Origin: Alphaproteobacteria bacterium
GTDB lineage: Bacteria > Pseudomonadota > Alphaproteobacteria > UBA6615
Reading direction: 5' to 3'
NCBI GenBank assembly: GCA_021774445.1
Contig: JAJFJA010000056.1
Location: forward strand, 18,347 to 82,346
Length of the DNA: 64,000 nucleotides
Under the pieces are notes generated by a model. It was not told the origin of the DNA. It ran no database searches and saw nothing but the letters and a program-made list of their open reading frames with translations. This document shows positions 3,093-38,411 of this stretch, piece after piece (positions within the stretch are counted from its first letter, which is position 1; every line of letters starts with the position of its first letter). The position numbers and the translations under genes were made by a program.

Positions 3093-5135
3093 ATGATGGA
3101 TTCACCCCTAGACGCTCTGCCGTCGGTTGAGGTTCCAGCGGCTCCCGCCAGTATGTCAGCGCTGCCGGATAACCCGCAATTCGCGGCCAATATCGCTGCC
3201 TTCGAGACTCATGCACCCGATCTTCACGCGCAGCTTTCGCGCCTGACGGAACCCCTGTCCGAGCTGTTGATCTTGCCGAATGGCGGCGTCGACATGTCAC
3301 TACAGGGACAGCTTTTCTATGGTGCGGACGCCGTCGAATTTGCAGAGGCGCAGTTACAGGCATTCCTGAGTAATCCGCAGCGGTTGTTCTTTAATGAACC
3401 CGATCCGGCGAACATCGAGGGCGTCGCCGGCGACTATTGCCGGGCGCTTTGCGGGCGAATGGAAGCCGCCAGGATCGGGCTGAATCGAGAGTCTGTCGGC
3501 AAGAACTCGCACTTTACCATCGTCTTTGGGGCCGGATTGGGGCTTCATATCGAGCCGCTGATCCGGCACACGGAATGCAAGGTACTTCTCATCGTCGATC
3601 CGACGCTGGAGAATATCTTCCACTCTCTCTCGGTTGTCGACTGGGCGGGGATATTTTCTGAAGCGGACGCCAGTGGCCGGGAGATTATATTCATTGTCGA
3701 AGATTCCGTTGACGCGATCATCGCGACAGCGCGGACCGCCATTCGGGCCCGCAATCCGGCGCTCTTGGACGGTATTTATGTCTACGCCCACTATCACAAT
3801 TCACTCCTGAAGGGCGCCCGGGAGCGATTTCAACAAGAGTTGTTTCTGCATCTGTCGGGACTCGGGTTCTTCGAGGACGAGTTACGGATGATGGCCAACT
3901 CCTGCTCCAATCTTGGCCACGGACAGACGATGGCCATTAATCGGCAGATGCCGGTTCATGAAACGCCCTTGTTCATCGTCGGCTCCGGCCCGTCGATCGA
4001 CAAGGACCTCGATTTCATCAAGGAAAATCGCGACCGAGCGATACTTATGAGTATTGGTTCCGGATTGCGGGGCTTGCTGGCCCATGGTGTCAAGCCCGAC
4101 TACCATGTTGAGCTGGAGAACGAATTCACCACGGCCTACATCATCGGGGTCGTGGCCGAGGAATTCGACCTCGCGGGCATTACATTGATCGGCTCCTACA
4201 CAATTCAAAAAAGAGTTGCCGACCGTTTCGACGAGACGCTGTTCTATTTCCGCGAACGGACCAGCTCGAGCATGCTTTTTGGCGATGGGTTTCAGCAGGT
4301 TTCTCCAGCCGGACCGACGGTGGCAAACTCGGCGCTCTCGGTGGCAATCCGGTTCGGCTTCAAAGACGTCTATCTGTTCGGGATGGACATGGGGTCGAAG
4401 GATCAGAGCCTGTATCATTCCAGCGGGTCGGTTTATGGCGCCGGGGTGTTGAGTGAGCTTGACCGTCCCGATACGCCCATTCCAGGCAATTTCGGCGGGA
4501 CGGCGTTCGCAGAGAATGTCCTTATCTGGTGCCGGCATTCGTTCGAGAACATGCTGCGGGCGCATCGCTATATGCGCTGCACAAATTGCAGCGATGGGGC
4601 GAGGATCGCCAATGCGATTCCCCGACTTACCCGGACAATCGAGTTGACCAACGAGCCGGTGGACCGCGAGGCGTTCAAACGGCAGATCCGCGATGGCATC
4701 AGCGTGTTTTCGGAGGGTAGACGCCGGCAATCCTGGTATCTGCCGTTGCGCCGCTCCGAGGTGCAGGTGGTCGTTGACGCAGCGCTTGCGTGCTTGGACC
4801 GAGCCGCCGCGCAGGATGATCCGGATCTTGAGTGGATGCATGAGCTGGCCACGCTCGTGCGCTATGATCTGGGTGGCGAGCGCAGCACGGCACTCGCGTT
4901 TTTCTACGGCACCGTTCTGCTCATGTTGGGCTGTAGCTGGTGGTATGATCGGCGTCTTGCCGAGGCCGATCGGCGGACGGATTTTCGCAAGGCGGTCATC
5001 GCCGAGCTTCGGGCTTCGTTCGAGGGGATGGATCAACGGCTTAAGCAGCTGTATCAGGAAATCGAAGACTATTTCAACGGCGAGCGCGAGGTGATCGAAG
5101 CGCCGCACGAGACTGACCGGCCTGACCTACATTAG
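3093..5135 (+). CDS. maf: Motility accessory factor Maf (DUF115/MptE-like domain), putative flagellin nonulosonic-acid glycosyltransferase
   Basis: Central region carries the DUF115 hallmarks LFIVGSGPSIDKDLDFIK and VYLFGMDMGS. The track ORF begins at 2781 and overlaps the divergent gene, so I chose the ATG pair at 3093 (MMDSPL...). Confidence 0.7.
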   Translation: MMDSPLDALPSVEVPAAPASMSALPDNPQFAANIAAFETHAPDLHAQLSRLTEPLSELLILPNGGVDMSLQGQLFYGADAVEFAEAQLQAFLSNPQRLFFNEPDPANIEGVAGDYCRALCGRMEAARIGLNRESVGKNSHFTIVFGAGLGLHIEPLIRHTECKVLLIVDPTLENIFHSLSVVDWAGIFSEADASGREIIFIVEDSVDAIIATARTAIRARNPALLDGIYVYAHYHNSLLKGARERFQQELFLHLSGLGFFEDELRMMANSCSNLGHGQTMAINRQMPVHETPLFIVGSGPSIDKDLDFIKENRDRAILMSIGSGLRGLLAHGVKPDYHVELENEFTTAYIIGVVAEEFDLAGITLIGSYTIQKRVADRFDETLFYFRERTSSSMLFGDGFQQVSPAGPTVANSALSVAIRFGFKDVYLFGMDMGSKDQSLYHSSGSVYGAGVLSELDRPDTPIPGNFGGTAFAENVLIWCRHSFENMLRAHRYMRCTNCSDGARIANAIPRLTRTIELTNEPVDREAFKRQIRDGISVFSEGRRRQSWYLPLRRSEVQVVVDAALACLDRAAAQDDPDLEWMHELATLVRYDLGGERSTALAFFYGTVLLMLGCSWWYDRRLAEADRRTDFRKAVIAELRASFEGMDQRLKQLYQEIEDYFNGEREVIEAPHETDRPDLH

Positions 5136-5197: not shown

Positions 5198-7177
5198 CTA
5201 TTGGACGTGTCGTTGGGTCCAGATCTGCTGAAAAGCGGATTCAAGGGATCTGGCGGTGGCACGGACATCGGCGAGCGGTGAGGCTGATACCCGACCCCTA
5301 AGGGTTTCTCGCGTGTCCGCAAGTGTGGACAGATCCAGCGCTATCAGACGACCGGTGTGCGCCAAATCGGCGGCATCCTGGCAGACCCATTCGCGGCACT
5401 CGGCGTCGATCAGGGTTGCGGCGGTTAGGCGACCGGCGAAGTTGTCGCGCGGTACGGTCAGGACGGGGACACCCATCCACAGAGCGCGACATGTCTCCGT
5501 GATGCACCCGCGATGGGCAACATCGAGGGCGATGTCTACGTGGTGATAGAACTCAAATTCATTGCTGAAGTTCTCGGCGGGATTGACGATGTCGATCCGA
5601 TCGCGCAGGCCGAGATGGGAGAAGGCTTCGTAGGTGCGAAGGACGCAGGTCTCGTCCAGTTCATGGCGGTTGTTGATGATGAGGCGCGCGTTGGGGATGG
5701 ATAGGAGCAACGGTCTCAGGGTGGCCGCAACATTGGTGTCGATTGCCGCAAGGTCGGCAACAATGCCGAAACTGACGTAGCCGAGGGCTGAGGCCGGCAG
5801 GGTATTGACCTCCGGCAGAATCGCCGGTGGGGCGTAACACGCCAAGGGGCCGCTGAGGTGGTGGACACGGCCGCCGCAAGTCGGCGGGACCTCCGGATCC
5901 GGCCAGGAGGCGGGCGTTGCGAGGAAATAGTCGTTGCCGACAGGGTGATCGTAGCCGAGCCAATTTGCGGTGGCCGGCACGGTGCTGCGGGCCAACGTCA
6001 ACAACCTGCAGCCGTCGCCATGGCCGGTAAGATCGACAGCGACGTCGATGGCGTCGCCGCGCAGGATCTCGGCGGCGGTTTCGTCGTCGACATCGACGAG
6101 ATCGGTCCAGCGGTCCGACAGGTGATTGATACGCTCGGATATCAAGTCGGATTGCTTGCCGTCGCTATAACAATAGATCTCGATCCGAGACCTATCATGG
6201 ACATCGAGGATCGGCGTCAGTAGGCGCGTGAGATCGTTGTCATGGAACTGGCCGCAGAAATATCCGACACGTAAGCGCCGATCTGTCTTGTCGGCGCTTG
6301 CCGACGGCGCCACCGGGCGGGCGAGGGAGGCCTTGCCGGTAAGGGGGGCGGCATGATCATGCCGCCATTCGGCATGGGCGCGCGCGACGTCCACACTGGA
6401 GGCGTTGGCGCTGCGGATCAGGTCTTGGAGGCGGCGGGAGCCAAGTTTGGCGTCCTGCGGTGCCATGGAGAGCACCGCGTTGTGGCAGGCCTGCGCTTCG
6501 TCGAAGCGCCCGGCGGTGGTCAGTGCGGCGGCGACCTCGGAGAGATCTTCGGGTGTCTGGTCGTGGCCATGCAGTAGGGCATGGCCGGCGGCGATAGCGC
6601 GTTCGACTTGGCCGGCGGCCCGAGATGCGCGGGCCAAAAGGCGCAGGGTGGCCGGATCGCCCGGGCTGATGTTCAGCTGCTTCTGGCAGGCCTCGATCGC
6701 GTCGTTCGGACGACGCTCGATGAGGAAGCGCTCGGCCCGATGGCGATAGAGATGGGGTTTCGATTCCTCGAGATTGGTTAGAAAATTGCGAAACTCGGCC
6801 GGCAGCAAGTCGGGGTATGTCGGGTGAGGCGGCTGAGTAGTCGCCAGTTTGGCATAGAAAAGACCTTCATTGACGTTGCCGACGCGGGCATAGGCCGCTG
6901 CCAGGGCCTGCGTGAAGTCACAGATATCCGGCTGTAGTTCGTGCGCTCGTTTGAGCAGAGGCAGGGCATGTGACGGCTCGTCCAGTTCAAAGCTGATAAG
7001 CCCGAGGACCAGAAATGCCTCGGCGCAGCCGGCTTCGGTCTTCAGCACGGTTTCGCAGGCAACGATGGCTTCTTCGACCCGCCCAGCCGCCAGGTGAGCC
7101 GTGGCTTGGTAGAGGGTCTCACGCAGAAATAAGGTCTTTCCGCCGGGGAGTGCCGCGTCGTCAATGTCGATGCTCAT
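5198..7177 (-). CDS. flmG: TPR-repeat protein with C-terminal GT41 (O-GlcNAc-transferase-like) glycosyltransferase domain; FlmG-like candidate flagellin glycosyltransferase
   Basis: 659 aa. The N-terminus has TPR repeats and the C-terminal roughly 350 aa resembles an OGT/SPINDLY-type GT-B domain (YFCGQFHDN, LWMGVPVLT). It sits between the Maf gene and the catabolic island. Confidence 0.65.
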   Translation of the reverse strand: MSIDIDDAALPGGKTLFLRETLYQATAHLAAGRVEEAIVACETVLKTEAGCAEAFLVLGLISFELDEPSHALPLLKRAHELQPDICDFTQALAAAYARVGNVNEGLFYAKLATTQPPHPTYPDLLPAEFRNFLTNLEESKPHLYRHRAERFLIERRPNDAIEACQKQLNISPGDPATLRLLARASRAAGQVERAIAAGHALLHGHDQTPEDLSEVAAALTTAGRFDEAQACHNAVLSMAPQDAKLGSRRLQDLIRSANASSVDVARAHAEWRHDHAAPLTGKASLARPVAPSASADKTDRRLRVGYFCGQFHDNDLTRLLTPILDVHDRSRIEIYCYSDGKQSDLISERINHLSDRWTDLVDVDDETAAEILRGDAIDVAVDLTGHGDGCRLLTLARSTVPATANWLGYDHPVGNDYFLATPASWPDPEVPPTCGGRVHHLSGPLACYAPPAILPEVNTLPASALGYVSFGIVADLAAIDTNVAATLRPLLLSIPNARLIINNRHELDETCVLRTYEAFSHLGLRDRIDIVNPAENFSNEFEFYHHVDIALDVAHRGCITETCRALWMGVPVLTVPRDNFAGRLTAATLIDAECREWVCQDAADLAHTGRLIALDLSTLADTRETLRGRVSASPLADVRATARSLESAFQQIWTQRHVQ

Positions 7178-14703: not shown

Positions 14704-16164
14704 ATGAGCATGATGGATGAGACGGCGGAGACATATGATGTGATATTCCGCGGCGCGCAAATCGTCGACGGAACGGGCGCGGCGCCGTTTGCCGGCGATC
14801 TGGCGATTCGTGGCGACCGGATCGCGGTCATCGCCGCCGCGGGTACGCTAAGCAGGGCCAAGCAAGATATCGACGCAAGCGGACAGGCGATTTCGCCCGG
14901 GTTTATCGACACGCACACCCATGACGACAACGCCGTCCTGATCGCGCCTGAGATGACGCCGAAGGTCAGCCAGGGCGTGACCACCGTGGTCGTGGGCAAT
15001 TGTGGCGTCAGCTTGGCGCCGACCGTGCTGCCGGGGGATCCACCGCCGCCGTTGAACCTACTGGGCAAGCGGGACGATTTTCGCTTCGAGGGTTTTGCCG
15101 ATTATGTGACAGCGGTCGAGCAGGCGCGGCCGGCGGTCAATGTGGTCGGCTTGGTCGGGCATAGCAGTCTGCGCGTCAGCGCCATGGAGCGGGTCGACCG
15201 GCGGGCCAGCACGGCCGAGATTGCGGTGATGCAGGAAGCGTTGGCCGAAGGGCTCGCGGCCGGTGCGGCGGGGTTCAGCACCGGTTTGTACTACAAACCA
15301 AACATGGCGGCCGACATGGACGAAGTCGTGGCCCTGGCGGCGCTGGTCGGCGCCGCCGGCGGCGTGTATGCGACGCATATGCGCGATGAGCATGTGCATG
15401 TCCTCGAGTCCCTCAATGAAACATTCGAGACGGCGCGGCGCGCCGGCACGACGGTGGTCATCTCGCACCATAAATGCTCGGGTCGGGAAAATTGGGGGCG
15501 CAGCCGCGAGACATTGCCGGTCATTGCCGCGGCCGGCGAGAGACAGCCGGTCGGTCTCGATGCCTATCCCTACGCCGCCGGCTCGACGGTGCTCGATGTC
15601 GATCACGTCGACGCGGAAATCCCCATCCTGATCACCTGGTCCGACGCGGTGCCGGAGGCGACCGGGCGCTATCTTGCCGACCTTGCGAAAGACTGGGGCT
15701 GCGATGTGTTCGAGGCGGCGCGCCGTCTGGATCCGGCCGGGGCGATTTATTTTCAGATGGCCGAGGAGGATGTGCGGCGCATCCTGGCGTTTCCCGGAAC
15801 GATGATCGGCTCAGACGGGCTGCCCCATGACAAGCATCCGCATCCACGGTTGTGGGGTACCTTCCCACGGGTAATCGGCCACTATGGCCGGGAGGTCGGG
15901 TTGTTTCCGCTGGAGGTGGCGGTCCATAAGATGACCGGCCTGGCGGCGGAACGGTTCGGTCTGAAGGATCGTGGCGTGCTGCGGGAGGGCGCGTATGCGG
16001 ATCTTGTGATGTTCGATCCGGTGGCGATTATCGACACCGCGACTTTCGAAGCGCCGGTGCAACCGGCACACGGCATATCTTTGGTGATGGTAAATGGTGT
16101 CGCCGCCTGGCGAGACGGCGCCGCCGGAGATCGAGCGGGCCGGTTTTTGCGCCGTGGGTCGTGA
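14704..16164 (+). CDS. N-acyl-D-amino-acid deacylase family amidohydrolase (D-aminoacylase-like)
   Basis: 486 aa with the metal-binding DTHTHDD motif near the N-terminus, an amidohydrolase fold and a C-terminal beta domain. Confidence 0.75.
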   Translation: MSMMDETAETYDVIFRGAQIVDGTGAAPFAGDLAIRGDRIAVIAAAGTLSRAKQDIDASGQAISPGFIDTHTHDDNAVLIAPEMTPKVSQGVTTVVVGNCGVSLAPTVLPGDPPPPLNLLGKRDDFRFEGFADYVTAVEQARPAVNVVGLVGHSSLRVSAMERVDRRASTAEIAVMQEALAEGLAAGAAGFSTGLYYKPNMAADMDEVVALAALVGAAGGVYATHMRDEHVHVLESLNETFETARRAGTTVVISHHKCSGRENWGRSRETLPVIAAAGERQPVGLDAYPYAAGSTVLDVDHVDAEIPILITWSDAVPEATGRYLADLAKDWGCDVFEAARRLDPAGAIYFQMAEEDVRRILAFPGTMIGSDGLPHDKHPHPRLWGTFPRVIGHYGREVGLFPLEVAVHKMTGLAAERFGLKDRGVLREGAYADLVMFDPVAIIDTATFEAPVQPAHGISLVMVNGVAAWRDGAAGDRAGRFLRRGS

Positions 16165-16206
16165 GCAGTCGGGGGTCGTGAGCCGCTGGGGATCGTGAGC
16201 AAACGA

Positions 16207-16240
16207 GGAGGGGGCAACCGCCCCCTCTCGGCGTTTGTTC
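16207..16240. terminator. Bidirectional intrinsic terminator between the aminoacylase gene (+) and flagellin 1 (-)
   Basis: GC-rich hairpin GAGGGGGC-AACC-GCCCCCTC followed by a T-rich tract (tcggcgtttgttc). Confidence 0.55.
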
Positions 16241-16249
16241 GGGCAGTGA

Positions 16250-17071
16250 TTAGCTGAAGAGCTGCAGGACGGACTGTTCGGACTGTCCGGCGAAAGCGAG
16301 GGCCTGGACACCCAACTGCTGCCGGGTCTGCAGGGCGACGAGATTGGCGCCTTCCTCGTTGATGTCGGCGAGGGTTAGCTTGCCGGCACCTTCTTCCAGC
16401 GTGTTCACGTAGGACTTGGTGAAGTCCAAGCGGGTCTGGAGCAGAGCGACACGAGAACCCAGGGACTGGGCATTGCCGCGCAGCGTGCTAACCGCGGTGG
16501 CGAGCTGGGTCAGAGCGGCATCGACAATACTGCCAGCGCTGAAGTTAGCGGCCGATGATATGCTCAAACCGGTTGAGGCGGTGCGCAGGTCAATCGAGTT
16601 GATGGTCAGAACGCTGGTCGAGGAGGTGCCGAATTCAACGGTCAATGTGGTGCCGGTGCCATTGACCAGGTTGTTGCCCTGATAGACCGCGTCTCCGGCC
16701 AGGTTGTCGATTTGCGTCTTCAACTCATTATACTGGGTGACGATCGCCGCCAATTCCGTGCCGGTCGCCGATTTGGCGCCGATGGCGATACCCTTCATCT
16801 GCTTGACGATGGAATCGATGGAATTGACGGTGTCGAGGGTTACCTTGACCGAGCTGATGGCCTGATCGATGCCGTCCTTCTTTTCGGCAATGTCGAAGGC
16901 GCGGTCGCTGAGGGCCTTGGCCTCGAAGAAGGCGCGACCGTCGTCGAGGGGACTGGCGACACGCAGGCCGGTCGAAAGACGGCCCTGGGTGCGCGAGATC
17001 AGATCCTGGGTTCCCTGCAGCGCGAGGAGATTGGTTCGGACTGCTGCTGTGAGTTGGATATCACCGGCCAT
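16250..17071 (-). CDS. fliC: Flagellin (paralog 1, about 273 aa short alphaproteobacterial type)
   Basis: N-terminal axial motif NRLSTGLRV-like (RLSTGLRVASPLDDGRAFFEAK) and C-terminal LVALQTRQQLGVQALAFAGQSEQSVLQLFS. Start set at MAGDIQ by alignment with the paralogs. Confidence 0.9.
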   Translation of the reverse strand: MAGDIQLTAAVRTNLLALQGTQDLISRTQGRLSTGLRVASPLDDGRAFFEAKALSDRAFDIAEKKDGIDQAISSVKVTLDTVNSIDSIVKQMKGIAIGAKSATGTELAAIVTQYNELKTQIDNLAGDAVYQGNNLVNGTGTTLTVEFGTSSTSVLTINSIDLRTASTGLSISSAANFSAGSIVDAALTQLATAVSTLRGNAQSLGSRVALLQTRLDFTKSYVNTLEEGAGKLTLADINEEGANLVALQTRQQLGVQALAFAGQSEQSVLQLFS

Positions 17072-17130
17072 TTTTGGCACCTTTCCATTCTGAACGTCGA
17101 GGCCGACCGAGCCGGCTCAAGGGTCATAGA

Positions 17131-17146
17131 GCAACAGGCGTGCCAA
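17131..17146 (-). promoter_or_regulatory. Sigma-54 (-24/-12) promoter for flagellin 1
   Basis: The minus strand reads TTGGCACGCCTGTTGCT, i.e. TGGCACG-N4-TTGCT, which matches the consensus exactly. It lies about 60 nt upstream of the start codon. Confidence 0.6.
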
Positions 17147-17254
17147 CTTGAAAATTCGGCTAAAAACCACGTTAAATCAGATACTTGCAGTCTTGTTGTT
17201 GGTTGTTTCTCGGGCCTTGGGTCCGATGCTGCCCGGCAAGAGAGACCCCAATTG

Positions 17255-17305
17255 CGGCAAACCTTGCCGGGAACGGGCAAGGGTTTGGCGGCAAAGGTTG
17301 CCGGG
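17255..17305. promoter_or_regulatory. Array of dyad sites CGGCAAA-NN-TTGCCGG (enhancer-like, FlbD/ftr-type) upstream of the flagellin 1 sigma-54 promoter
   Basis: CGGCAAACCTTGCCGGG (17255-17271), inverted degenerate copy GGGCAAGGGTTTGGC (17275-17289), CGGCAAAGGTTGCCGGG (17289-17305). A half-site CCCGGCAAG lies at 17232-17240. Confidence 0.5.
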
Positions 17306-17365
17306 ACACGGTTGATCGGTCCGGCGATGGGAACCACCGGGCGATCAGTTGGGCGTGGAGATGGC

Positions 17366-17403
17366 TTGGAAAGAAATGGGGGGGAGGGCGCGTGGCCCCC
17401 CCC
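17366..17403 (-). terminator. Intrinsic terminator downstream of flagellin 2
   Basis: G7/C8 hairpin (gggggggagggcgcgtggcccccccc) followed on the minus-strand RNA by AUUUCUUUCC. Confidence 0.55.
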
Positions 17404-17429
17404 AGGTAACTTCGTACGACTTCGGACGA

Positions 17430-18248
17430 CTACTGGAAGAGAGATAGAACCGATTGCTCGGACTGACCGGCAAAGGCGAGGGCGGAAATACCGAGTTGCT
17501 GTCTTGTCTGCAGCGATACCAGGTTGGCCCCTTCCTCATTGATGTTGGCCAGGGTGAGCTTGCCGGCGCCTTCCTCCAAGTCATTTACATAGGCACCCGT
17601 AAAGTCCAGGCGAACTTGCAGCAACGCGACGTTTGAGCCGAGCGAGGACGCATTGCCTCGCAGGGTGGTAATCGCCGTATTCAACTGCGTGATCGCCGCA
17701 TCAACAACACTGGTAGCACTGAAATTGGCCGCCGAAGTAATGGCGAGACCAGTACTGCCAGTTTGCAGGTTAACCGCGCTAATGGACAAGATACTGGTGC
17801 TGACCGTGCCGAACGAAACGTCCAGCGTGGTGGTCGTGTTGTTCACCAGGTTCAATCCCTGATAGCTGGCGTCGCCTGCGAGGTTGTTGATTTGTGTGCG
17901 AAGCGAGTTGTATTGGCTCACGATTGCGGTTAGTTCCGAGCCCGTGGCGGACTTGGCGCTGATCGCGAGCCCCTTTAACTGCCGCACCAGCGTGTCTACT
18001 GCCTCAACTGCTTCGAGGGCAGTTTTCACGGAGCTGATACCTTGGTCGATGCCGTCTTTCTTTTCAGCGAAATCGGAGGCGCGGTCGGCAAGCGACTTCG
18101 CCTCGAAGAACGCCTTCGAGTCGTCAATCGGGCTGGAAACCCGAAGACCAGTGGATAGACGATTTTGGGTCTTGTCGATCAAGGATTGAGTCTTGCCCAG
18201 TGTTAGCAGGTTGGCACGAACGGCGGCATTCAAGGTTATTTCAGCCAT
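17430..18248 (-). CDS. fliC: Flagellin (paralog 2)
   Basis: MAEITLNAAVRANLL N-terminus, NRLSTGLRVSSPIDDSKAFFEAK, C-terminal QTRQQLGISALAFAGQSEQSVLSLFQ. Confidence 0.9.
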   Translation of the reverse strand: MAEITLNAAVRANLLTLGKTQSLIDKTQNRLSTGLRVSSPIDDSKAFFEAKSLADRASDFAEKKDGIDQGISSVKTALEAVEAVDTLVRQLKGLAISAKSATGSELTAIVSQYNSLRTQINNLAGDASYQGLNLVNNTTTTLDVSFGTVSTSILSISAVNLQTGSTGLAITSAANFSATSVVDAAITQLNTAITTLRGNASSLGSNVALLQVRLDFTGAYVNDLEEGAGKLTLANINEEGANLVSLQTRQQLGISALAFAGQSEQSVLSLFQ

Positions 18249-18307
18249 GATTTCTGTCCTCATTCTGAAGTGGCTATTACAAGAGCTTCTGCTCCGACGA
18301 GGACTGC

Positions 18308-18322
18308 AGCAATTATCGGGCC
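18308..18322 (-). promoter_or_regulatory. Sigma-54-like promoter for flagellin 2
   Basis: The minus strand reads TGGCCCGATAATTGCTG, with GG-N10-GC spacing. Confidence 0.45.
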
Positions 18323-18410
18323 ATTATTTTATTGAGCTATTTCATATGGTTATGCTCTTTCTTGGCCCCTGGCGATGGAAAGAATGTGCTGGCTAGGAAA
18401 TATTTGCCGG

Positions 18411-18440
18411 ACAAAAAAAGGGGGGCCGAAGCCCCCCTTA
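18411..18440 (-). terminator. Intrinsic terminator downstream of flagellin 3
   Basis: Minus-strand RNA reads GGGGGGC-UUCG-GCCCCCC followed by U9. The plus strand reads acaaaaaaaggggggccgaagcccccc. Confidence 0.75.
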
Positions 18441-18466
18441 AGGATACGTTCAGATGGAATCCGGGT

Positions 18467-19288
18467 TTACCGGAAGAGTGACAACACCGACTGCTCGGAC
18501 TGGCCGGCGAAGGCGAGGGCGGAGATACCCAACTGCTGCCTTGTCTGCAGCGATACCAGGTTGGCACCTTCCTCGTTGATGTCGGCGAGGGTGAGCTTGC
18601 CGGCACCTTCTTCGAGGCCATTCACATAGGACTTGGTGAAGTCCAAACGAGCTTGAAGCAAAGCGACGTTGGAACCGAGCGAAGACGCGTTGCCTCGCAA
18701 GGTGGTGATCGCCGTGTCCAACTGAGTAATAGCCGCGTCGACAAGGCTGGTCGCGCTGAAGTTAGCGGCAGACGTAACAGAGAGGCCACCAACGGTGTTG
18801 GTCCGCAGATCAACGGCAGTGATGGACAGAGTACTCGTGGTCGCCGTGCCGAAGGAGACAGCCAGGGTCGACGTGGTGTTGTTGACCAGGTTGAGACCCT
18901 GATAACTGGCGTCACCGGCCAGGTTGTCGATCTGGGTCCGCAAGGAGTTGTACTGGCTGACGATGGACGTCAACTCAGTGCCGCTCGCGGATTTGGCGCT
19001 GATGGCCAGACCTTTGAGCTGGCGAACCAGCGTATCGACGGCCTCAACGGCCTCGAGGGCAGTTTTAACCGAGCTGATACCCTGATCGATACCGTCCTTT
19101 TTCTCGGAGAAATCCGAGGCGCGGTCGCTGAGCGACTTGGCCTCGAAAAACGCCTTCGAATCGTCAATCGGGCTGGAAACCCGAAGGCCGGTGGACAGAC
19201 GGTTCTGAGTTTTATCGATAAGGGATTGGGTGTTGCTGAGGGTCAACAGGTTCGACCGCACAGCGGCATTAAGGGTAATTTCAGCCAT
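18467..19288 (-). CDS. fliC: Flagellin (paralog 3)
   Basis: 273 aa. The N- and C-terminal domains are essentially identical to paralog 4 and the central domain diverges. Confidence 0.9.
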   Translation of the reverse strand: MAEITLNAAVRSNLLTLSNTQSLIDKTQNRLSTGLRVSSPIDDSKAFFEAKSLSDRASDFSEKKDGIDQGISSVKTALEAVEAVDTLVRQLKGLAISAKSASGTELTSIVSQYNSLRTQIDNLAGDASYQGLNLVNNTTSTLAVSFGTATTSTLSITAVDLRTNTVGGLSVTSAANFSATSLVDAAITQLDTAITTLRGNASSLGSNVALLQARLDFTKSYVNGLEEGAGKLTLADINEEGANLVSLQTRQQLGISALAFAGQSEQSVLSLFR

Positions 19289-19360
19289 TATTAGTGGTCC
19301 TCATTCTGAAGGTAAGTTATTGGAGCTTCTGCTCCAGACTAGTTCTGGAAATCCGGCGGT

Positions 19361-20206
19361 TTACCGGAAGAGCGACAACACCGACTGCTCGGACTGACCG
19401 GCGAAGGCGAGGGCGGAGATACCCAGCTGCTGCCTTGTCTGCAGCGACACCAGGTTGGCACCTTCCTCGTTGATGTCGGCGAGGGTGAGCTTGCCGGCAC
19501 CTTCTTCGAGGCCATTCACATAGGATTTGGTGAAGTCCAGGCGGGCCTGGAGCAGGGCGACGTTGGAACCGAGCGAAGACGCGTTGCCTCGCAAGGTGGT
19601 GATCGCCGTGTCCAATTCCGTAATCGCCGCGTCAGCGCCGCTTGCGGTGCTGAAATCGATCTCGCCCGTGGTCGTCGCAGAGGCGGCGGCCAGTGTAACA
19701 GCGAGCCCGGCACTACCCGCCTGTAGGTTCACCGCTGCAATGGACAGGGTACTGGTGGTCGCCGTCCCGAAGGAGACGGCCAGGGTCGACGTGGTGTTGT
19801 TGACCAGGTTGAGACCCTGATAGCTGGCGTCACCGGCCAGATTGTCAATCTGGGTGCGGAGAGAGTTGTACTGAGAGACAATGGAGGTCAACTCCGTACC
19901 AGTCGCGGATTTGGCGCTGATGGCCAGACCCTTGAGCTGGCGAACCAGCGTGTCGACGGCCTCGACGGCTTCAAGAGCCGTTTTGACCGAGCTGATGCCC
20001 TGATCGATACCGTCCTTTTTCTCGGAGAAATCCGATGCCCGGTCGCTCAGCGACTTGGCCTCGAAGAACGCCTTCGAATCGTCGATCGGGCTGGCAACTC
20101 GCAGACCGGTAGACAGACGGTTTTGGGTTTTGTCGATAAGGGATTGGGTGTTGCTGAGGGTCAATAGGTTCGACCGCACAGCCGCGTTGAGGGTAATTTC
20201 TGCCAT
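19361..20206 (-). CDS. fliC: Flagellin (paralog 4, with a central insertion)
   Basis: The track ORF starts at MRSQGM, and the alignment-based start is MAEITL. The central segment AAASATTTGEIDFSTASGADAAITELDTAITTLRG is inserted relative to paralog 3. Confidence 0.9.
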   Translation of the reverse strand: MAEITLNAAVRSNLLTLSNTQSLIDKTQNRLSTGLRVASPIDDSKAFFEAKSLSDRASDFSEKKDGIDQGISSVKTALEAVEAVDTLVRQLKGLAISAKSATGTELTSIVSQYNSLRTQIDNLAGDASYQGLNLVNNTTSTLAVSFGTATTSTLSIAAVNLQAGSAGLAVTLAAASATTTGEIDFSTASGADAAITELDTAITTLRGNASSLGSNVALLQARLDFTKSYVNGLEEGAGKLTLADINEEGANLVSLQTRQQLGISALAFAGQSEQSVLSLFR

Positions 20207-20266
20207 ACCTTGGCTCCTCATTCTGAAGGACTATGTGACGGAGCTTCTGCTCCGGCCCGACTTGCT

Positions 20267-20282
20267 GCAATCGAGAGGCCAA
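20267..20282 (-). promoter_or_regulatory. Sigma-54-like promoter for flagellin 4
   Basis: The minus strand reads TGGCCTCTCGATTGCAG, with GG-N10-GC spacing. Confidence 0.45.
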
Positions 20283-20334
20283 CTCTATTTTCGTTTATTT
20301 ACAACGTGTTATGGCGTTTAGTTTTGGGAAACCA

Positions 20335-20392
20335 TGCAATTTGTGCCGATTTTTCTAGGCAAATTTTGCCGCCGATAGGCAAGATTTGCCGG
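20335..20392. promoter_or_regulatory. Array of three GGCAA-N3-TTGCC dyad sites upstream of the flagellin 4 promoter
   Basis: TGCAATTTGTGCC (20335-20347, degenerate), GGCAAATTTTGCC (20358-20370), GGCAAGATTTGCC (20378-20390). Confidence 0.45.
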
Positions 20393-20474
20393 ATGCGGCC
20401 ATGGTGGTGGCCCCATGTGCGAAAACGCGCAGGCGATATCGGGTAGCGGTGTGGATCGATAAATACGATGACCG

Positions 20475-21314
20475 TCAGGCGAATAAGTTGAGAACCGAGC
20501 CTGGGTCTATTTCTTGTTTGAAAACCGTGTACTGAGAAATGTAGGCCGTTATCGACTGGGCGATTTCGAAGGAGAGCGAGAGAGCGGTCAAGATTCGCGC
20601 GAATTGCTCTTTCTTCTTTTCGATCTCGTCGATATTTTCGATCTGCGCGCCTAGTTGTATCGCTGAGATGTCCGATTCGAGGTCGGCAATCTTTTCACTG
20701 GTGTTCTGCGACAGGTTAAATCCAGCATCTTCATTGATGCGGGTTATTTCGAGGGTAACGCCGAAACTCGCGGAAAGGCCGTTGAGCGTGGCCTGAACGG
20801 CGGAAATATCGCCGCCGGTGGCGAAGTTATTGTGCACCAGCGCGTTGAGCTGTGCCACCGCGTCCGCCTTAAGCTTCCGCAAACCATCGGGGGCGCCAAA
20901 GCGCTCGAAAACCGGCGTATCCAGCTTTTCGATGTCGGCGATGGCCGAGGCCAGGCGGGAATCGAATTCGGCGACGGTCGATGGATCGGCCAGGGCAATC
21001 AGGTCGGTAAAAGCGGCGATCGTCGTTTCGGTGGTGACGCGATTGCTCTTGGTGCGCGCGGCATAGGCGTCGATGTCGGCAACGTCCCGCTTCAGGCGGG
21101 TGACGTTAATGTCTAGCAGCGCCGTAGCGCCGCTGGTGTTCTTTTCCTGCTGGAGATCCAGGATCTCCTTGTCCAGGCGCTTTAGGACAGTTTCCTGAGT
21201 GATACTGAACTGGAGCTCGAAGGCCGGGCCCGAGGCGAGCTGGGACAGTCTTACGAACTGTTCGGCCACGGAAATCGTGTCGAAACTGCTCTTTAAGCCT
21301 GGAATGGTCGCCAT
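20475..21314 (-). CDS. Hypothetical coiled-coil protein with a flagellar axial-protein-like C-terminus (orphan, between flgL and the flagellin array)
   Basis: 279 aa. The C-terminus ITAYISQYTVFKQEIDPGSVLNLFA parallels the flagellin (SVLSLFR) and FlgL (LSLLNFLN) termini, but the N-terminus is not a canonical flagellin D0 segment. Confidence 0.55.
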   Translation of the reverse strand: MATIPGLKSSFDTISVAEQFVRLSQLASGPAFELQFSITQETVLKRLDKEILDLQQEKNTSGATALLDINVTRLKRDVADIDAYAARTKSNRVTTETTIAAFTDLIALADPSTVAEFDSRLASAIADIEKLDTPVFERFGAPDGLRKLKADAVAQLNALVHNNFATGGDISAVQATLNGLSASFGVTLEITRINEDAGFNLSQNTSEKIADLESDISAIQLGAQIENIDEIEKKKEQFARILTALSLSFEIAQSITAYISQYTVFKQEIDPGSVLNLFA

Positions 21315-21396
21315 GATCGTGAGCTGTCCGAGTTTGCGAAACCGTACGAGCCTGACACCTCCAGAGTTAAGGCGGTGTTAAGCGCGGGCTAAGTCG

Positions 21397-22590
21397 CTAG
21401 TTGAGGAAATTGAGCAATGACAAGGATTGGATCCGCGAAATGGTTGAATACGAGGCTTGAAGCTGAACTTGATCAGACTGCAGGCGGGCGACGACTTCGG
21501 CGGTATTGATGTTCTGGATGTCGCCGATAATCTCCGCTGCATAGATGTTGTATTGCTCGTGTCGGCCCTGCACGTTCTTAAGGGTGATACGAGGGCCGTT
21601 GAGTTCGATCCGTAAATCAGTCAGACCGTCGATGCCGTTGGTCACATCGACGCCGAGGATGTTGTCGATGATATCCCGGGCCTTTTTGACAAGGACCTGG
21701 CCATCGGGCGTGGCAATCGACGCCTGAGGCAGGTTGGCGATGGCATCGACCGCGGTAATCAGTTGTTGGAAAGCGACCTCGTTGGCGGAGACGCCATATT
21801 TGATCTCAAAGCTTTCGTCGATTCTGGCAGCACTTTGGACGTTGTCGCCCTGGTAGTAATCGAGCTTCGGATTTGCCATCATTTGGCTCGAATTGAGACG
21901 GTCGACGTAATAGCTGAAGAGGTTCGGATCCTCGGCCTTGAACTCAGCCAGCGTCGGGTTGTTCAAATCGGCCGGGACCGGCACCGTAGGCAGGACACCG
22001 TTCTTTTCGAAGTAGATCTGTTGATAAAAACTGCCTTGCGCGTAGGGCAAAGTGTTGCCGAGCACGTTGGTGTAGTAGGACTGGTAGAAGGTCTCGTCGA
22101 CAGTGTTGGCGTCGCTCTCGATGAGCTTGACCGGCGTGTAGGTGCCGGCGGCGAAGGTCACGGGGGCGCGATCGACGCGGCCGCCGGCAAAGAGATAGCG
22201 GGTGCCGTCGCGGGCGTTCAAGGACTCGCCGACCAACGAAAGCGTGTTGGTGGCGAGGTCGACCATATCGGCGAGATGGGACTCGGGACCGTCGAGCGAG
22301 GCATTCAACAGTTTGCGCATCTCAGTGGCCAAGGTCTCAGTACTCTCCATGCTGATATCCATCAAGGAGAGGCGCTGTTCGACGGTGTTGATATTGTCGA
22401 TGAATTGATTGGTCCGGCCCACCGTCGCCTCGGTGGAAACCAGGCGGCTGGCGCTCTGATAGATGCCGGAATATTGCTGGGCGACAACACCGGTGCTGAG
22501 CTGAGTCTGCAGATCAAACATCTGCCGCTGCTGATTCAGGGTGTTGAACAGGATCATCTGTTGCTGGGCGTATGGCGCAACGCGAGTCAT
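21397..22590 (-). CDS. flgL: Flagellar hook-associated protein 3 FlgL
   Basis: 397 aa. N-terminus QQRQMFDLQTQLSTGVV, and flagellin-like C-terminal helix ARLQSDQVQLQASYSTISRIQSLSLLNFLN. Confidence 0.85.
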   Translation of the reverse strand: MTRVAPYAQQQMILFNTLNQQRQMFDLQTQLSTGVVAQQYSGIYQSASRLVSTEATVGRTNQFIDNINTVEQRLSLMDISMESTETLATEMRKLLNASLDGPESHLADMVDLATNTLSLVGESLNARDGTRYLFAGGRVDRAPVTFAAGTYTPVKLIESDANTVDETFYQSYYTNVLGNTLPYAQGSFYQQIYFEKNGVLPTVPVPADLNNPTLAEFKAEDPNLFSYYVDRLNSSQMMANPKLDYYQGDNVQSAARIDESFEIKYGVSANEVAFQQLITAVDAIANLPQASIATPDGQVLVKKARDIIDNILGVDVTNGIDGLTDLRIELNGPRITLKNVQGRHEQYNIYAAEIIGDIQNINTAEVVARLQSDQVQLQASYSTISRIQSLSLLNFLN

Positions 22591-26663: not shown

Positions 26664-26933
26664 CAGACCGTGTCTTGTAAGTTGTTGTCCTGATTGTATT
26701 TTTTGGCTAGACCGCTGAGTGCCGACCAGAAATCCAGCGGCAGGGACTGCCGGTGACCCGGCAAGTCCTACCGGGTTCCCGCGGCATCGGCCTGGGCCGA
26801 CTTCGCGACGCCAAGTAAAAAATGGGCCGGTTCATGCCGGCCCGAGTTCAGGGAGGAGAAAAATGCAATAGAGCACCTTTAGACTACGAGTATAGAGTGA
26901 TTCGCCCCCATTTTGTAAATTAAATATCTGATA

Positions 26934-27393: not shown

Positions 27394-28233
27394 TTGGGCG
27401 GCACCATGGTGGCCATGCAGGAGCAGTTAGAGGCTCGGACCGACGCGGGAAGCGGGCCTCTAGTGGTCGATGTGAGAGACCTCTCGCTCACATTCAAGAC
27501 GTCGGATGGGCCGGTATACGCGTTGTCGCATGTCGATCTGCAGATCGCGGAGGGCGATTTCGTTTCCTTTATCGGGCCGTCGGGCTGTGGCAAGACGACC
27601 ATGCTGCGGGTAATCGCCGACCTGGAGCGGCCCACGGACGGGCAGATCACGGTCAATGGCGTCTCGGCGGAAGAGGCCCGCCTAAACCGAAGCTATGGTT
27701 ATGTTTTTCAGGCAGCGGCGCTGTACCCGTGGCGCAATATTCTGCGCAACGTGACCTTGCCGCTGGAGATCATGGGCGTCCCGGCGGCGGAGCGGCGAGA
27801 TCGAGCGCGGCGTTATCTCGAACTCGTGAACCTCGCCGGATTCGAGAAAAAATTCCCGTGGCAGCTTTCCGGCGGCATGCAGCAACGGGCGTCGATCGCC
27901 CGAGCCTTATGCTTCGATCCCGCATTGCTGCTGATGGATGAGCCTTTTGGGGCGTTGGATGAGATCGTGCGCGACCATCTCAACGAGCAATTGCTGCAGT
28001 TGTGGGAGAAGACCGGCAAGACGGTTGTTTTCGTGACCCATTCGATCCCGGAGGCGGTCTTCCTGTCGTCCAAGATCGTCGTCATGTCGCCGCGGCCGGG
28101 GCGGGTAATCGACGTCATTCACAATGATCTGCCGCGGCAGCGTACCCTGGATATTCGGGAATCGCCGGCGTTCTTGTCGGTGGCGCATCGGGTGCGGCAG
28201 GGGCTGCGAGCCGGGCATAGCTATGACGACTGA
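27394..28233 (+). CDS. ABC transporter ATP-binding protein (NitT/TauT nitrate/sulfonate/taurine-type family)
   Basis: Walker A GPSGCGKTT, signature LSGGMQQRASIA, Walker B LLMDEPFGALD. 279 aa with no extra C-terminal domain. Confidence 0.85.
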   Translation: MGGTMVAMQEQLEARTDAGSGPLVVDVRDLSLTFKTSDGPVYALSHVDLQIAEGDFVSFIGPSGCGKTTMLRVIADLERPTDGQITVNGVSAEEARLNRSYGYVFQAAALYPWRNILRNVTLPLEIMGVPAAERRDRARRYLELVNLAGFEKKFPWQLSGGMQQRASIARALCFDPALLLMDEPFGALDEIVRDHLNEQLLQLWEKTGKTVVFVTHSIPEAVFLSSKIVVMSPRPGRVIDVIHNDLPRQRTLDIRESPAFLSVAHRVRQGLRAGHSYDD

Positions 28234-29155
28234 CGCTATCGGCGGGGACGAGCGGTTTGCGGCGGGCAGCGCCCGGGTCGGCAGGGTAATCGGCCAGCGT
28301 GCGGCGCCGATCGCGGTCGTCGTGCTGGTGGTTCTCGTGGCGTGGTATGTCGGCGCCGTGGCGATGAATGCCCGGCTTCAGATCGATGCCTTCGAACGCC
28401 AAGAGGTGGCTTGGGACCGCGGCGACTTGGTGCGCGCGACGTTGTCTCAGGAGCGGCCGCTGTTACCGGCGCCGCATCAAATCCTGGTGGAGATGAAGAA
28501 GACCATCATCGATCAGAAAATCACCTCCAAGCGAAGCTTGGTCTTTCATTCCTGGGTGACGTTGTCGTCAACCCTGCTGGGCTTCGCCATCGGCACGGCG
28601 CTTGGCGTGGTGCTGGCCATTGGCATCGTGCATGTGACGACCCTGGAAAAGAGCTTGATGCCCTGGGTAATCTCCTCGCAGACGATCCCGATCCTGGCGA
28701 TCGCCCCCATGGTGGTCGTGGTGTTGGGGGCCATCGGCCTGAAAGGGTTGCTGCCGAAGGCGATCATATCGACTTATCTGTGCTTCTTCCCGGTCACGAT
28801 CGGGATGGTGAAAGGGCTGCGGGCGGCGGATTCGCTGCAATTGGACCTGATGCAGACCTATAGCGCGAGCCGATGGCAGACGTTGTGGATGTTGCGCTGG
28901 CCGGCGGCGTTGCCGTTCCTGTTCACGAGCCTGAAGGTTGCCATCGCGATTGCCCTGGTCGGGGCGATTGTCGGCGAACTTCCGACCGGTGCCCAGGCCG
29001 GCCTGGGGGCACGGCTGCTCGCCGGTTCGTACTACGGTCAGACGATCCAGATCTGGTCCGCCTTGCTGACCGCGGCGGCCTTGGCTTCGCTGCTCGTCAC
29101 AGCGGTGGGAGTGATCGAGCGGTTGACCTTGTCGCGCATGGGAGGCCGGCCGTGA
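28223..29155 (+). CDS. ABC transporter permease (NitT/TauT family)
   Basis: Start chosen at MTTDAIGG, overlapping the upstream stop (ATGACGACTGA). Polytopic protein. Confidence 0.8.
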   Translation: MTTDAIGGDERFAAGSARVGRVIGQRAAPIAVVVLVVLVAWYVGAVAMNARLQIDAFERQEVAWDRGDLVRATLSQERPLLPAPHQILVEMKKTIIDQKITSKRSLVFHSWVTLSSTLLGFAIGTALGVVLAIGIVHVTTLEKSLMPWVISSQTIPILAIAPMVVVVLGAIGLKGLLPKAIISTYLCFFPVTIGMVKGLRAADSLQLDLMQTYSASRWQTLWMLRWPAALPFLFTSLKVAIAIALVGAIVGELPTGAQAGLGARLLAGSYYGQTIQIWSALLTAAALASLLVTAVGVIERLTLSRMGGRP

Positions 29156-30294
29156 GCGCGGACGCGCGCGGCGACCGATGGTGCCGGGTCGCGCTGCTGC
29201 TCATGGCGCCGGCGCTGGTGCTGCCGCTGGGTGGCGGTGAAGCGATCTCTCGGTGGTCCGATGCGGCCGGCGCGCTGCCCTTTTTGCTGCCGCTGGCGGG
29301 TGTTTGCGCCTGGTTTAGCTGGCGCGGGATGGCGATAGCACGCCAAGGGGCGGTGTTGGTGCTGGCGGTCGCTCTGGGCGCCTGGGGTGCGGTGGATTTG
29401 CTGCATGAACACGGCATTGCGGGTCGCGCGGCGAGCGGCTTCTGGCTTTATGTGCTGGCACTGTGGGTGGCGGCTTGGCGGGGGATCGATGGCTTGGCGC
29501 GGTTCCGCAGCCTTGATGGACGGGCGCAACGGGCGGTGAACCTGTTGGTGCCGGCGGCTTTCGGGCTGTGGTTGATCTTTCTGTGGGAGATGGTAACGGT
29601 TGGTTTCGGGGTGCCGCAGGTGTTGCTCCCGGCGCCCAGCATGGTGGCCGAACGGTTCGCCGGATCGCTAAACCTGCTGTGGGCCGATTTCCGCCAAACC
29701 TTCCTCAAGGCGGTGATCTCGGGTTATGTGCTCGGCTGTGGCAGCGGTTTCATCGTCGCGGTGCTGGTGGACCGGGTGCCGTTCCTGCAACGCGGCTTGC
29801 TGCCTTTGGGCAATCTGGTGAGTGCGCTGCCGATCGTCGGCGTGGCGCCGATCATGGTCATGTGGTTCGGTTTCGACTGGCAATCGAAGGCCGCCGTCGT
29901 GGTGATTATGACGTTTTTTCCGATGCTGGTGAACACGGTCACGGGACTGGCGGCCGCCGGTGCTTTGGAACGGGATCTGATGCGGTCCTATGGGGCGGGC
30001 TATTGGCCGACCCTGGCGAAGCTGCGGCTGCCCGCGGCGATGCCGTTCATCTTTAATGCGCTGAAGATCAATTCGACGCTGGCCCTGATCGGTGCCATCG
30101 TCGCCGAGTTCTTCGGCACGCCGATTGTGGGTATGGGCTTCCGCATTTCCACGGAGGTGGGCCGCATGAATGTCGATATGGTCTGGGCGGAAATCGCGCT
30201 GGCGGCGTTAGCCGGGTCGGCGTTTTACGGGCTCGTGGCTCTTAGCGAGCGCGCGACAACGTTCTGGCATCCTTCGTTTCGGGCAGAGCGCTAG
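29152..30294 (+). CDS. ABC transporter permease (NitT/TauT family, N-terminally extended)
   Basis: GTG start overlapping the upstream TGA. Core motif FNALKINSTLALIGAIVAEF is paralogous to the upstream permease, and there are extra N-terminal TM segments. Confidence 0.75.
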   Translation: MSADARGDRWCRVALLLMAPALVLPLGGGEAISRWSDAAGALPFLLPLAGVCAWFSWRGMAIARQGAVLVLAVALGAWGAVDLLHEHGIAGRAASGFWLYVLALWVAAWRGIDGLARFRSLDGRAQRAVNLLVPAAFGLWLIFLWEMVTVGFGVPQVLLPAPSMVAERFAGSLNLLWADFRQTFLKAVISGYVLGCGSGFIVAVLVDRVPFLQRGLLPLGNLVSALPIVGVAPIMVMWFGFDWQSKAAVVVIMTFFPMLVNTVTGLAAAGALERDLMRSYGAGYWPTLAKLRLPAAMPFIFNALKINSTLALIGAIVAEFFGTPIVGMGFRISTEVGRMNVDMVWAEIALAALAGSAFYGLVALSERATTFWHPSFRAER

Positions 30295-30336
30295 GTTCAA
30301 TTGAAAACAAACATTGCCATCAACAGGAGGAAAATC

Positions 30337-31329: not shown

Positions 31330-31410
31330 CAAGAGTTGGCCTCACGCTCGGCGAGCGTGGGGCCCTTCTTTGGCCATAGAGATCGGCGTCAAATCGTTGT
31401 TGGGAGGTGA

Positions 31411-32856
<1,446 letters not shown>

Positions 32857-33593: not shown

Positions 33594-34016
33594 ATGAAAG
33601 TGGACGGTCCAGGTCGGCTTCGTTCCGGCCCGGCGCGGCGTTCTGGCAAAAGCCAGGGCGCTGCCGACGGTGGCTTTGCCAAGCATATTTCGGGGGGCTC
33701 GGATCCGTCGACAACGGCGGTGAGCGGCGCCGTTGGCTTGGGCTCGGTCGAGGCGTTGCTGTCGATTCAGGAAACGCCGGACCCGCAGCAGCGTACGAAA
33801 TCTTCGGGCTATCGCCGCGCCGAAGATCTGTTGGACCGGCTGGACGACATTCGGATCGGTCTGCTGCTCGGGCGGTTCTCGCGCGGCCGGCTCGAATCCC
33901 TCGTAACGAGGTTGGCCGAGCAGCGTGGCGGCAATCTCGATCCAACACTGGCCGGGCTCCTCGACGAGATCGAGCTGCGCGCCAAGGTCGAATTGGCCAA
34001 ACTCTCGGTAATTTGA
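33594..34016 (+). CDS. fliX: Class II flagellar assembly regulator FliX-like protein
   Basis: 140 aa. MKVDGPG... N-terminus, conserved central RRAEDLLDRLDDIRIGLLLGR and C-terminal LLDEIELRAKVELAKL, which resemble the alphaproteobacterial FliX family as I recall it. Confidence 0.55.
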   Translation: MKVDGPGRLRSGPARRSGKSQGAADGGFAKHISGGSDPSTTAVSGAVGLGSVEALLSIQETPDPQQRTKSSGYRRAEDLLDRLDDIRIGLLLGRFSRGRLESLVTRLAEQRGGNLDPTLAGLLDEIELRAKVELAKLSVI

Positions 34017-38158: not shown

Positions 38159-38317
38159 CACGTAGCGTGCCAGGCGCGGAGTTGAGCGATGCCAAGGATT
38201 TAGAGCGTTTTGCTGCGGACTCATGGAAGCCGGATGGGGTCTTCTCGGCAGGCTTTGCCGGGTAAAGCCTGCCGAGAACCGAGACTACCGGGCCGGCCTG
38301 GTGCCGGTCCGGCCGCC

Positions 38318-38333: not shown

Positions 38334-38411
38334 CAGGAAACTCGTACCTTCGGGCCTGGCAACCGGCGGGTTTTTAGCCTGCCGGCAGGGACTGGATGGT
38401 ACCGATAAAAT

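Follow-up and report, generated by a model that had tools for sequence, protein, structure and literature searches.

In Caulobacter crescentus, the flagellar genes of classes III and IV (flbG, flaN/flgK, flgI, flgF, fljK and fljL) combine a sigma-54 promoter with FlbD-bound ftr enhancers, an IHF site and control by FliX. Sigma-54, IHF and FlbD are all required at these promoters (PMC3096577, PMC3930126), and the only known role of FliX is that of a dedicated trans-acting partner controlling FlbD (PMC3096577). Homologues of FlbD and FliX have been reported in dozens of polarly flagellated alphaproteobacteria (PMC3096577, PMC3930126). In Rhodospirillum centenum, flbD mutations abolish the polar flagellum (PMC2890560), and in this species and in Azospirillum, flbD lies in a separate fliFHN-motA-flbD-flhAF-fleN cluster (PMC3169532). 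Here we describe the flagellin promoters, and the palindromic dyads upstream of them, in a 64-kb stretch of DNA from an uncultured alphaproteobacterium (the window, meaning the whole stretch analysed), which has a G+C content of 60% and carries a large polar-flagellum gene cluster. Judged by their sequence and arrangement, these are likely to be enhancer-dependent sigma-54 promoters of late flagellar genes, laid out on the Caulobacter FlbD/FliX plan.

Sigma-54 promoters and upstream dyads in the window

The window encodes four flagellin paralogues, all on the minus strand (Table 1). At flagellins 1, 2 and 4, and at the flgI and flgF operons, a -24/-12 element is found 45-75 nt 5' of the start codon. 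The same five units have one to three GGCAA-N3-TTGCC dyads each, together with half-sites at flagellin 1, centred 85-176 bp 5' of the predicted transcription start. Between the dyads and the promoter the sequence is rich in A+T and often includes an IHF-like site.

The dyad is strongly enriched. Four exact copies of GGCAA-N3-TTGCC occur in the 64 kb, compared with 0.10 +/- 0.30 in 100 shuffles, none of which reached four, and these copies are confined to two flagellin intergenic regions; with one mismatch allowed, there are 11 sites against 2.9 expected. We also scanned the window with a position matrix built from the sites of related genomes alone, with both the window and Caulobacter left out. 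The five good flagellin sites take its first five places, with the flgF site at rank 7 and the flgI sites at ranks 11 and 16. Some of this might be expected by chance, as CGGC- and GCCG-rich words are common at 60% G+C, simulated sequence reached a matrix maximum of 20.3 in 50 simulations, and one high-scoring match (3427-3443) lies inside a Maf gene. Nevertheless, it seems exceedingly improbable that the dyads are without regulatory function, whether as chance palindromes, as repeats dispersed between genes or as hairpins of terminators, given that the exact sites so far exceed expectation and all adjoin flagellin promoters, that site positions are kept across genomes while the flanks diverge, and that no T-run follows the dyads, the real terminators being separate hairpins. 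A terminator or dispersed repeat was rejected on the grounds that no dyad appears among the listed terminators and exact copies occur only beside flagellin promoters.

The first-pass annotation had placed an exact sigma-54 element upstream of flagellin 1 at 17131-17146. The sequence, TGGCACGCCTGTTGC, is as described, but the coordinates took in one extra upstream T and are corrected in Table 1. This is the sole exact TGGCAC-N5-TTGC in the window; since 14 of 100 shuffles yield at least one match, the lone occurrence is weak evidence by itself. Its -12 GC lies 58 nt 5' of the ATG at 17071, which alignment with the paralogues identifies as the true start codon, placing the predicted transcription start near 17120 and leaving a leader of ~49 nt. 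The orthologous promoters read TGGCACGCCGGTTGC in the related locus L001 and TGGCACATCGGTTGC in L002. Both dyads claimed upstream of this promoter were recovered as 17-bp elements 110-160 bp 5' of it, along with the claimed degenerate copy and half-site. The nearer dyad, CGGCAAACCTTGCCGGG, has orthologous sites at -141 in L001 and -139 in L002, and we propose it as a candidate binding site for an FlbD-type activator. The farther dyad, CGGCAAAGGTTGCCGGG, is probably a recent gain, since alignment revealed no counterpart in L001. Between dyads and promoter lies an IHF-like site that matches the consensus WATCARNNNNTTR exactly, one of only 4 such matches in 64 kb; the L001 orthologue, L001_flaC, has an exact consensus match at -60.

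Flagellin 2 has a promoter and a single dyad that were not part of the earlier annotation; the dyad has an orthologue at -106 in L001. At flagellin 4, three GGCAA-N3-TTGCC sites had been predicted. Two are exact, with cores at 20358-20370 and 20378-20390, whereas the third, GGCACAAATTGCA (minus strand, within 20333-20349), is degenerate, with 2 mismatches; the matrix scores of the array are 19.7, 20.7 and 10.6. The sigma-54-like promoter that was expected downstream of this array is present as TGGCCTCTCGATTGC. The layout is kept in L001, with sites at -128 and -108 and the third site conserved in the alignment, and likewise in L007, with four sites. The flagellin 2 and 4 promoters conform to TGGCC(C/T)-N5-TTGC, which puts their predicted transcription starts near 18298 and 20256 on the minus strand.

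An own promoter for flagellin 3 was rejected, none having been found: the region 18467-19360 holds a conserved leader and neither promoter, dyads nor an upstream terminator. As the 72-bp fla4-fla3 spacer contains no terminator and no sigma-54 motif, fla3 is probably co-transcribed from the fla4 promoter. The two genes are 89% identical, and only three flagellins are present in L001, the closest relative; fla3 seems to have arisen by a recent tandem duplication and to depend on the fla4 promoter for its transcription. Terminators 3' of fla3 and fla2 isolate the fla2 and fla1 transcription units. No sigma-70-like promoter was found in 16000-21500, a region not scanned for the sigma-28 consensus. 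CtrA-dependent (class II) flagellin promoters, with TTAA-N7-TTAA near -35, were also rejected: an exact search of the window found no such box at any flagellin promoter, and the lone exact box lies elsewhere.

The flgI and flgF promoters each have one mismatch to the sigma-54 element. The flgF promoter and a 33-bp palindrome that contains overlapping dyads lie in the 268-bp region between flgF and the divergent fliL.

Conservation in related genomes and the link to Caulobacter ftr elements

Five related loci, L001-L005, came from a scan of species-representative genomes with a flagellin alignment. All are metagenome-assembled and labelled Alphaproteobacteria, one of them Rhodospirillaceae, and their flagellins are from 87% down to 53% identical to those of the window (L001, L002, L003, L005). 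A search for FliX homologues yielded 191, and through homologues 48-59% identical we reached the further syntenic loci L007, L008 and L010. Each of these loci has a sigma-54 element, with GGCAA-N3-TTGCC-like sites upstream of it, in front of flagellin, flgI or flgF genes. The exception is one flagellin of L004 (65% flagellin identity), which lies 90 bp after flgL and whose spacer (5895-6015) has neither sigma-54 motif nor dyads; the architecture is thus not universal.

In three-way alignments of orthologous upstream regions, the dyads, the IHF-like site, the -24/-12 element and the leader each coincide with a conserved block, and the intervening sequence has diverged. We pooled 20 promoters, drawn from the window together with six loci of related uncultured alphaproteobacteria, and counted sites in the 200 bp upstream against 500 shuffles. 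Sites with at most two mismatches number 42, compared with 3.5 +/- 1.8 in shuffles (maximum 9), and those with at most one mismatch number 26, compared with 0.4. Site centres concentrate around -128, -107, -85 and -67, with a period of ~21 bp, and in 13 of the 20 promoters a site has its centre between -110 and -104. With at most one mismatch, the IHF consensus is found in the 80 bp 5' of 12 promoters out of 20, compared with an expectation of 2.06, and none of 1000 shuffles reached 12; at flagellins 2 and 4, flgI and flgF of the window it is absent, and the spacers are A+T-rich only. The positional conservation of the sites is clear, and the geometry of enhancer-dependent late flagellar promoters, previously proposed from the window, is borne out by -24/-12 elements and dyads conserved in both sequence and position across related genomes.

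These positions also bear on whether the dyads could instead be operators of a non-enhancer regulator, such as a repressor, and work separately from the sigma-54 promoters. Many dimeric regulators typically recognise short perfect palindromes, FlbD is itself a repressor at some Caulobacter sites (PMC3930126), and one dyad in L005 (413-425) is placed at ~+29, in the flagellin leader. However, most sites lie 85-176 bp 5' of the start and are therefore too far for steric repression, their distance to the -24 element is tightly conserved, and IHF-like sites accompany them, a geometry that is that of an enhancer. We consider the operator explanation very unlikely. The L005 dyad, GGCAAGTATTGCC, in the locus labelled Rhodospirillaceae, is perfect, lies ~29 nt 3' of the predicted flagellin start in addition to two upstream dyads, and recalls the downstream ftr elements of Caulobacter.

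A Caulobacter FlbD query matched a real protein at 94% identity and led to a 21.4-kb hook-gene cluster locus of Caulobacter segnis, to which the same matrix was applied; in this locus flgK diverges from flbG-flgD-flgE, followed by fliF-fliG-flbE-fliN-flbD-flhA. Matches 1, 3 and 4 fall in the 386-bp flaN-flbG region and match 5 at the fliF promoter, so that four of the top five lie in regions that together account for 2.6% of its length. In a second Caulobacter locus, a control that has no class III promoters, no score exceeded 8.8. To judge from the title of Mullin & Newton 1993, as given in PMC3096577, and from PMC3930126, ftr1-3 (flaN-flbG) and ftr4 (fliF) have been mapped in C. crescentus at these very regions. 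The orthologous C. segnis sites are ACGGCGAAATCTGCCGG, CCGGCAAAAAACGCCGC and TGGGCAGGGTTCGCCGG, and the site 5' of the flbG promoter, TGGCCCGGCCTTTGC, has its centre at -108, the commonest position in the group to which the window belongs. From the matrix matches and the -108 flbG site, we conclude at the level of sequence that the window dyads are the same kind of element as the Caulobacter ftr sites, a likeness that the first-pass annotation had pointed out.

The candidate activator, its gene setting and possible further control

Extrapolating from the Caulobacter model (PMC3096577, PMC3930126), dimers of an FlbD orthologue would occupy the dyads. The site spacing of ~21 bp, two helical turns, would put these dimers on the same face of the DNA and so aid assembly of the active ATPase oligomer. 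IHF would bend the spacer to let the oligomer contact the closed sigma-54 holoenzyme complex, and ATP hydrolysis by the oligomer would remodel that complex and open the promoter. FliX would hold FlbD inactive until the early basal structure has been assembled, with the consequence that rod, ring, hook-associated and flagellin genes would be expressed late.

Several points weigh against this model. For this organism, transcription starts, binding and expression are predictions from the sequence, and FlbD is assigned as the activator by inference. The 64-kb window has neither a sigma-54 activator gene nor rpoN, and tblastn with FlbD against the window and L001-L013 matched only the Caulobacter loci; rpoN, too, is absent from the related loci. 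Orthologous C. segnis DNA, together with paper titles and a review, connects the dyads with the mapped ftr elements. At flgI and flgF the -12 elements (TCGC and GTGC, respectively) deviate from TTGC, and flagellin 1 has an unusual spacing (-176 and -142, 34 bp apart) and a decayed -106 site where L001 has a good one. Finally, the shuffle statistics overstate significance because orthologous promoters are not independent samples.

The lack of flbD in the window could mean that the promoters are of sigma-54 type while the dyads are bound by another activator: a FleQ/FlrA-type master regulator, a response regulator of the FleR/FlrC/FlgR type under kinase control, or a FleQ/FleT pair like that of Rhodobacter sphaeroides. 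Such regulators drive sigma-54 flagellar genes in many polar flagellates (PMC7064773, PMC3930126). Against this, the window carries fliX, known only for FlbD control (PMC3096577), and the site matrix recovers the FlbD target regions of Caulobacter. The absence of flbD is explained by its place in a separate cluster, fliFHN-motA-flbD-flhAF-fleN, in related Rhodospirillales (PMC3169532). This cluster is not in the window, and flbD was found neither beside fliX in L007-L011 nor beside flgB in L014 and L015. A different activator is, on balance, unlikely, and we retain the FlbD/FliX plan.

Gene order resembles that of Caulobacter, with the flgF operon divergent from fliLM and, in relatives, flgI divergent from fliX. 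Upstream of fla4 on the minus strand are a conserved open reading frame (20475-21314), flgL, flgK, a further open reading frame, a flgJ-like gene and flgI. The 20475-21314 frame, 279 aa long, gave a sub-threshold imelysin match as its sole family signal. It separates flgL from the flagellins, and ~50 bp 5' of it, at 21367-21381, is the lone exact TTAA-N7-TTAA of the 64 kb, against 0.07 expected. ABC-transporter and dihydropyrimidinase genes (27394-32856) lie between flgI and fliX; as these two genes are directly divergent in L007 and L010, the block looks like an insertion into the flagellar cluster. The flgH-flgA-flgG-flgF genes are on the minus strand, divergent from fliL-fliM. Also in the window are dksA, cheY, cheZ, motB-like genes, fliP and fliO, with flgB at the right edge. 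A Maf-type flagellin glycosyltransferase is encoded as well; the dyad within its gene, CCGGCGACTATTGCCGG (matrix score 17.5), has no sigma-54 motif near it and may be a chance occurrence or an internal site.

Table 1. Coordinates of genes, predicted promoters, dyads and other elements in the 64-kb window
Feature	Position	Strand	Remarks
Flagellin 1 (fla1)	16250-17071	minus	most divergent paralogue, 68-73% identity to others
Flagellin 2 (fla2)	17430-18263	minus	
Flagellin 3 (fla3)	18467-19288	minus	
Flagellin 4 (fla4)	19361-20221	minus	
fliX	33594-34016	plus	Pfam FliX, E = 3e-35
fliL	38411-38972	plus	FliL in syntenic loci
Sigma-54 promoter of flagellin 1, TGGCACGCCTGTTGC	17145-17131	minus	exact TGGCAC-N5-TTGC
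Half-site CCCGGCAAG	17232-17240		flagellin 1 upstream region
Dyad CGGCAAACCTTGCCGGG	17255-17271	plus-strand reading	centre ~-142; matrix score 19.3
Degenerate site GGGCAAGGGTTTGGC	17275-17289		flagellin 1 upstream region
Dyad CGGCAAAGGTTGCCGGG	17289-17305	plus-strand reading	centre ~-176; matrix score 19.0
IHF-like site AATCAGATACTTG	17175-17187	plus	exact match to WATCARNNNNTTR; centre ~-61
Terminator-like hairpin after flagellin 2	17381-17403	minus	
Sigma-54 promoter of flagellin 2, TGGCCCGATAATTGC	18323-18309	minus	L001 orthologue TGGCCCGGTAATTGC
Single dyad TAGGAAATATTTGCCGG	18394-18410		flagellin 2 upstream; centre ~-104; matrix score 19.2
Intrinsic terminator after flagellin 3	18418-18439	minus	
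Sigma-54 promoter of flagellin 4, TGGCCTCTCGATTGC(A)	20281-20267	minus	
Three-site array	20333-20392		flagellin 4 upstream; centres ~-128, -108, -85; spacing 20-23 bp
Flagellin leaders	20207-20255, 19289-19345, 18264-18297, 17072-17120	minus	conserved
Sigma-54-type promoter of flgI operon, TGGCACGATTCTCGC	26662-26648	minus	orthologues TGGCACGCTTCTCGC in L007, TGGCACGGTTCTCGC in L010
Two weaker dyads CCGGCAGTCCCTGCCGC, CCGGTAGGACTTGCCGG	26737-26774	minus	flgI upstream; centres ~-108, -129
Sigma-54-type promoter of flgF-flgG-flgA-flgH operon, TGGCACGCTACGTGC	38172-38158	minus	orthologue TGGCACGCGGCGTGC in L008
Overlapping dyads inside 33-bp palindrome CTCGGCAGGCTTTACCCGGCAAAGCCTGCCGAG	38245-38275		flgF upstream; centres ~-106, -120; matrix score 16.7

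The flagellin units differ in layout. A -24 of TGGCAC goes with sites at -176 and -142, an exact IHF site and an own leader type at fla1; TGGCCC with one site at -104 and a shared leader type at fla2; and TGGCCT with three sites 20-23 bp apart and the shared leader type at fla4 (with fla3). L001, whose flagellins are those 87% identical, has these three promoter types too, arranged in the same order, without fla3 and the -176 site; the differences are thus maintained between species. We speculate that they may determine how strongly, or when, each paralogue is expressed relative to the others. That they form a cis-encoded programme by which a single activator turns on the paralogues in a set order or ratio is a tentative idea that we would not favour at present.

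The leaders themselves carry a conserved element, a hairpin plus a UUCAGAAUG motif. Those of fla2, fla3 and fla4 have in common a GGAGC-AGAA-GCUCC hairpin, after which comes CUUCAGAAUGAGGA, overlapping the ribosome-binding site, and the fla1 leader carries the variant UUCAGAAUGGAAAGGUGCCAAAAAUG. Both types are conserved in relatives, where a 2-nt loop insertion in L007 keeps the stem intact. An Rfam search of the window, leaders included, returned no family. The leader may be the translational control target of a CsrA- or FlbT/FlaF-like factor; the window yielded neither flaF nor flbT. At 62998-63228 on the minus strand there is a csrA gene (76 aa, MLYLTRKIGESIVINDD...), divergent from flgB-flgC-fliE-fliQ-fliR-flhB, and no Pfam match to FliW was obtained among the window open reading frames scanned. 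The two conserved leader types and the csrA of the same gene cluster may together provide a second control layer. In L014 (7999-8379) and L015 (9641-9871), csrA is likewise upstream of flgB on the opposite strand, with a transposase between them in L014. Both loci also encode a PAS-PAS-HisKA-HATPase kinase after flhB and before recA and alaS (L014 13394-15742; L015 13432-15987), that of L015 with a receiver domain as well. We take Caulobacter cckA to adjoin flhB in the same way; if so, the kinase would fit a CckA-CtrA layer above the FlbD layer.

Comparison with known systems

In the enteric NtrC system at glnAp2, tandem dyads ~100-140 bp 5' of a sigma-54 promoter aid assembly of an AAA+ oligomer. 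The window resembles it in placing tandem dyads, here for a proposed activator of the dimeric AAA+ kind, 5' of a sigma-54 promoter, whereas NtrC has another recognition sequence, a phosphorylation switch in place of a FliX-type partner, and a nitrogen assimilation regulon.

Among flagellar systems, FlrA/FlrC of Vibrio, FleQ/FleR of Pseudomonas and FlgR of Campylobacter and Helicobacter govern sigma-54-dependent middle genes and couple activation to assembly of the early basal structure (PMC7064773, PMC3930126). These systems differ in using a sensor kinase, in lacking FliX and in having most flagellins dependent on sigma-28 (FliA); here all flagellin units have sigma-54-type promoters and no sigma-70-like ones, the sigma-28 consensus not having been scanned for. 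The flagellar clusters of R. centenum and Azospirillum are similar to that of the window, including dksA, cheZ, motB-like and TPR genes (PMC3169532). No FlbD binding sites or promoter architecture are defined for these two in the accessible literature, and the window supplies a candidate FlbD motif for a group related to them.

The closest match is Caulobacter itself, to whose ftr regions the comparison provides a direct link at the level of sequence. Common to both are GG-N10-GC promoters before rod, ring, hook-associated and flagellin genes, the dyad form CGGC-R-R-N3-Y-Y-GCCG, a site centre at ~-108, IHF-like sites in the spacer of some promoters (in the window, that of flagellin 1), fliX, and the divergent pairs flgF operon/fliLM and flgI/fliX. 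Unlike the Caulobacter sites (GGC-R-R-N3-Y-Y-GCC), the window dyads are richer in A+T and more perfectly palindromic (GGCAA-N3-TTGCC), and they form arrays of up to three sites, four in L007, ~21 bp apart. The host also differs in being uncultured, its nearest named relative in the comparison set being labelled Rhodospirillaceae. The candidate motif CGGCAA-N3-TTGCCG and its preferred positions could serve FlbD regulon annotation in metagenome-assembled genomes. Current understanding of how such promoters work is unchanged, and a specialist would find no surprise in the layout, which is already known from Caulobacter; this is a new instance in an uncultured lineage, extending the late flagellar model of sigma-54, FlbD-type enhancer, IHF and FliX to uncultured Rhodospirillales-like alphaproteobacteria.

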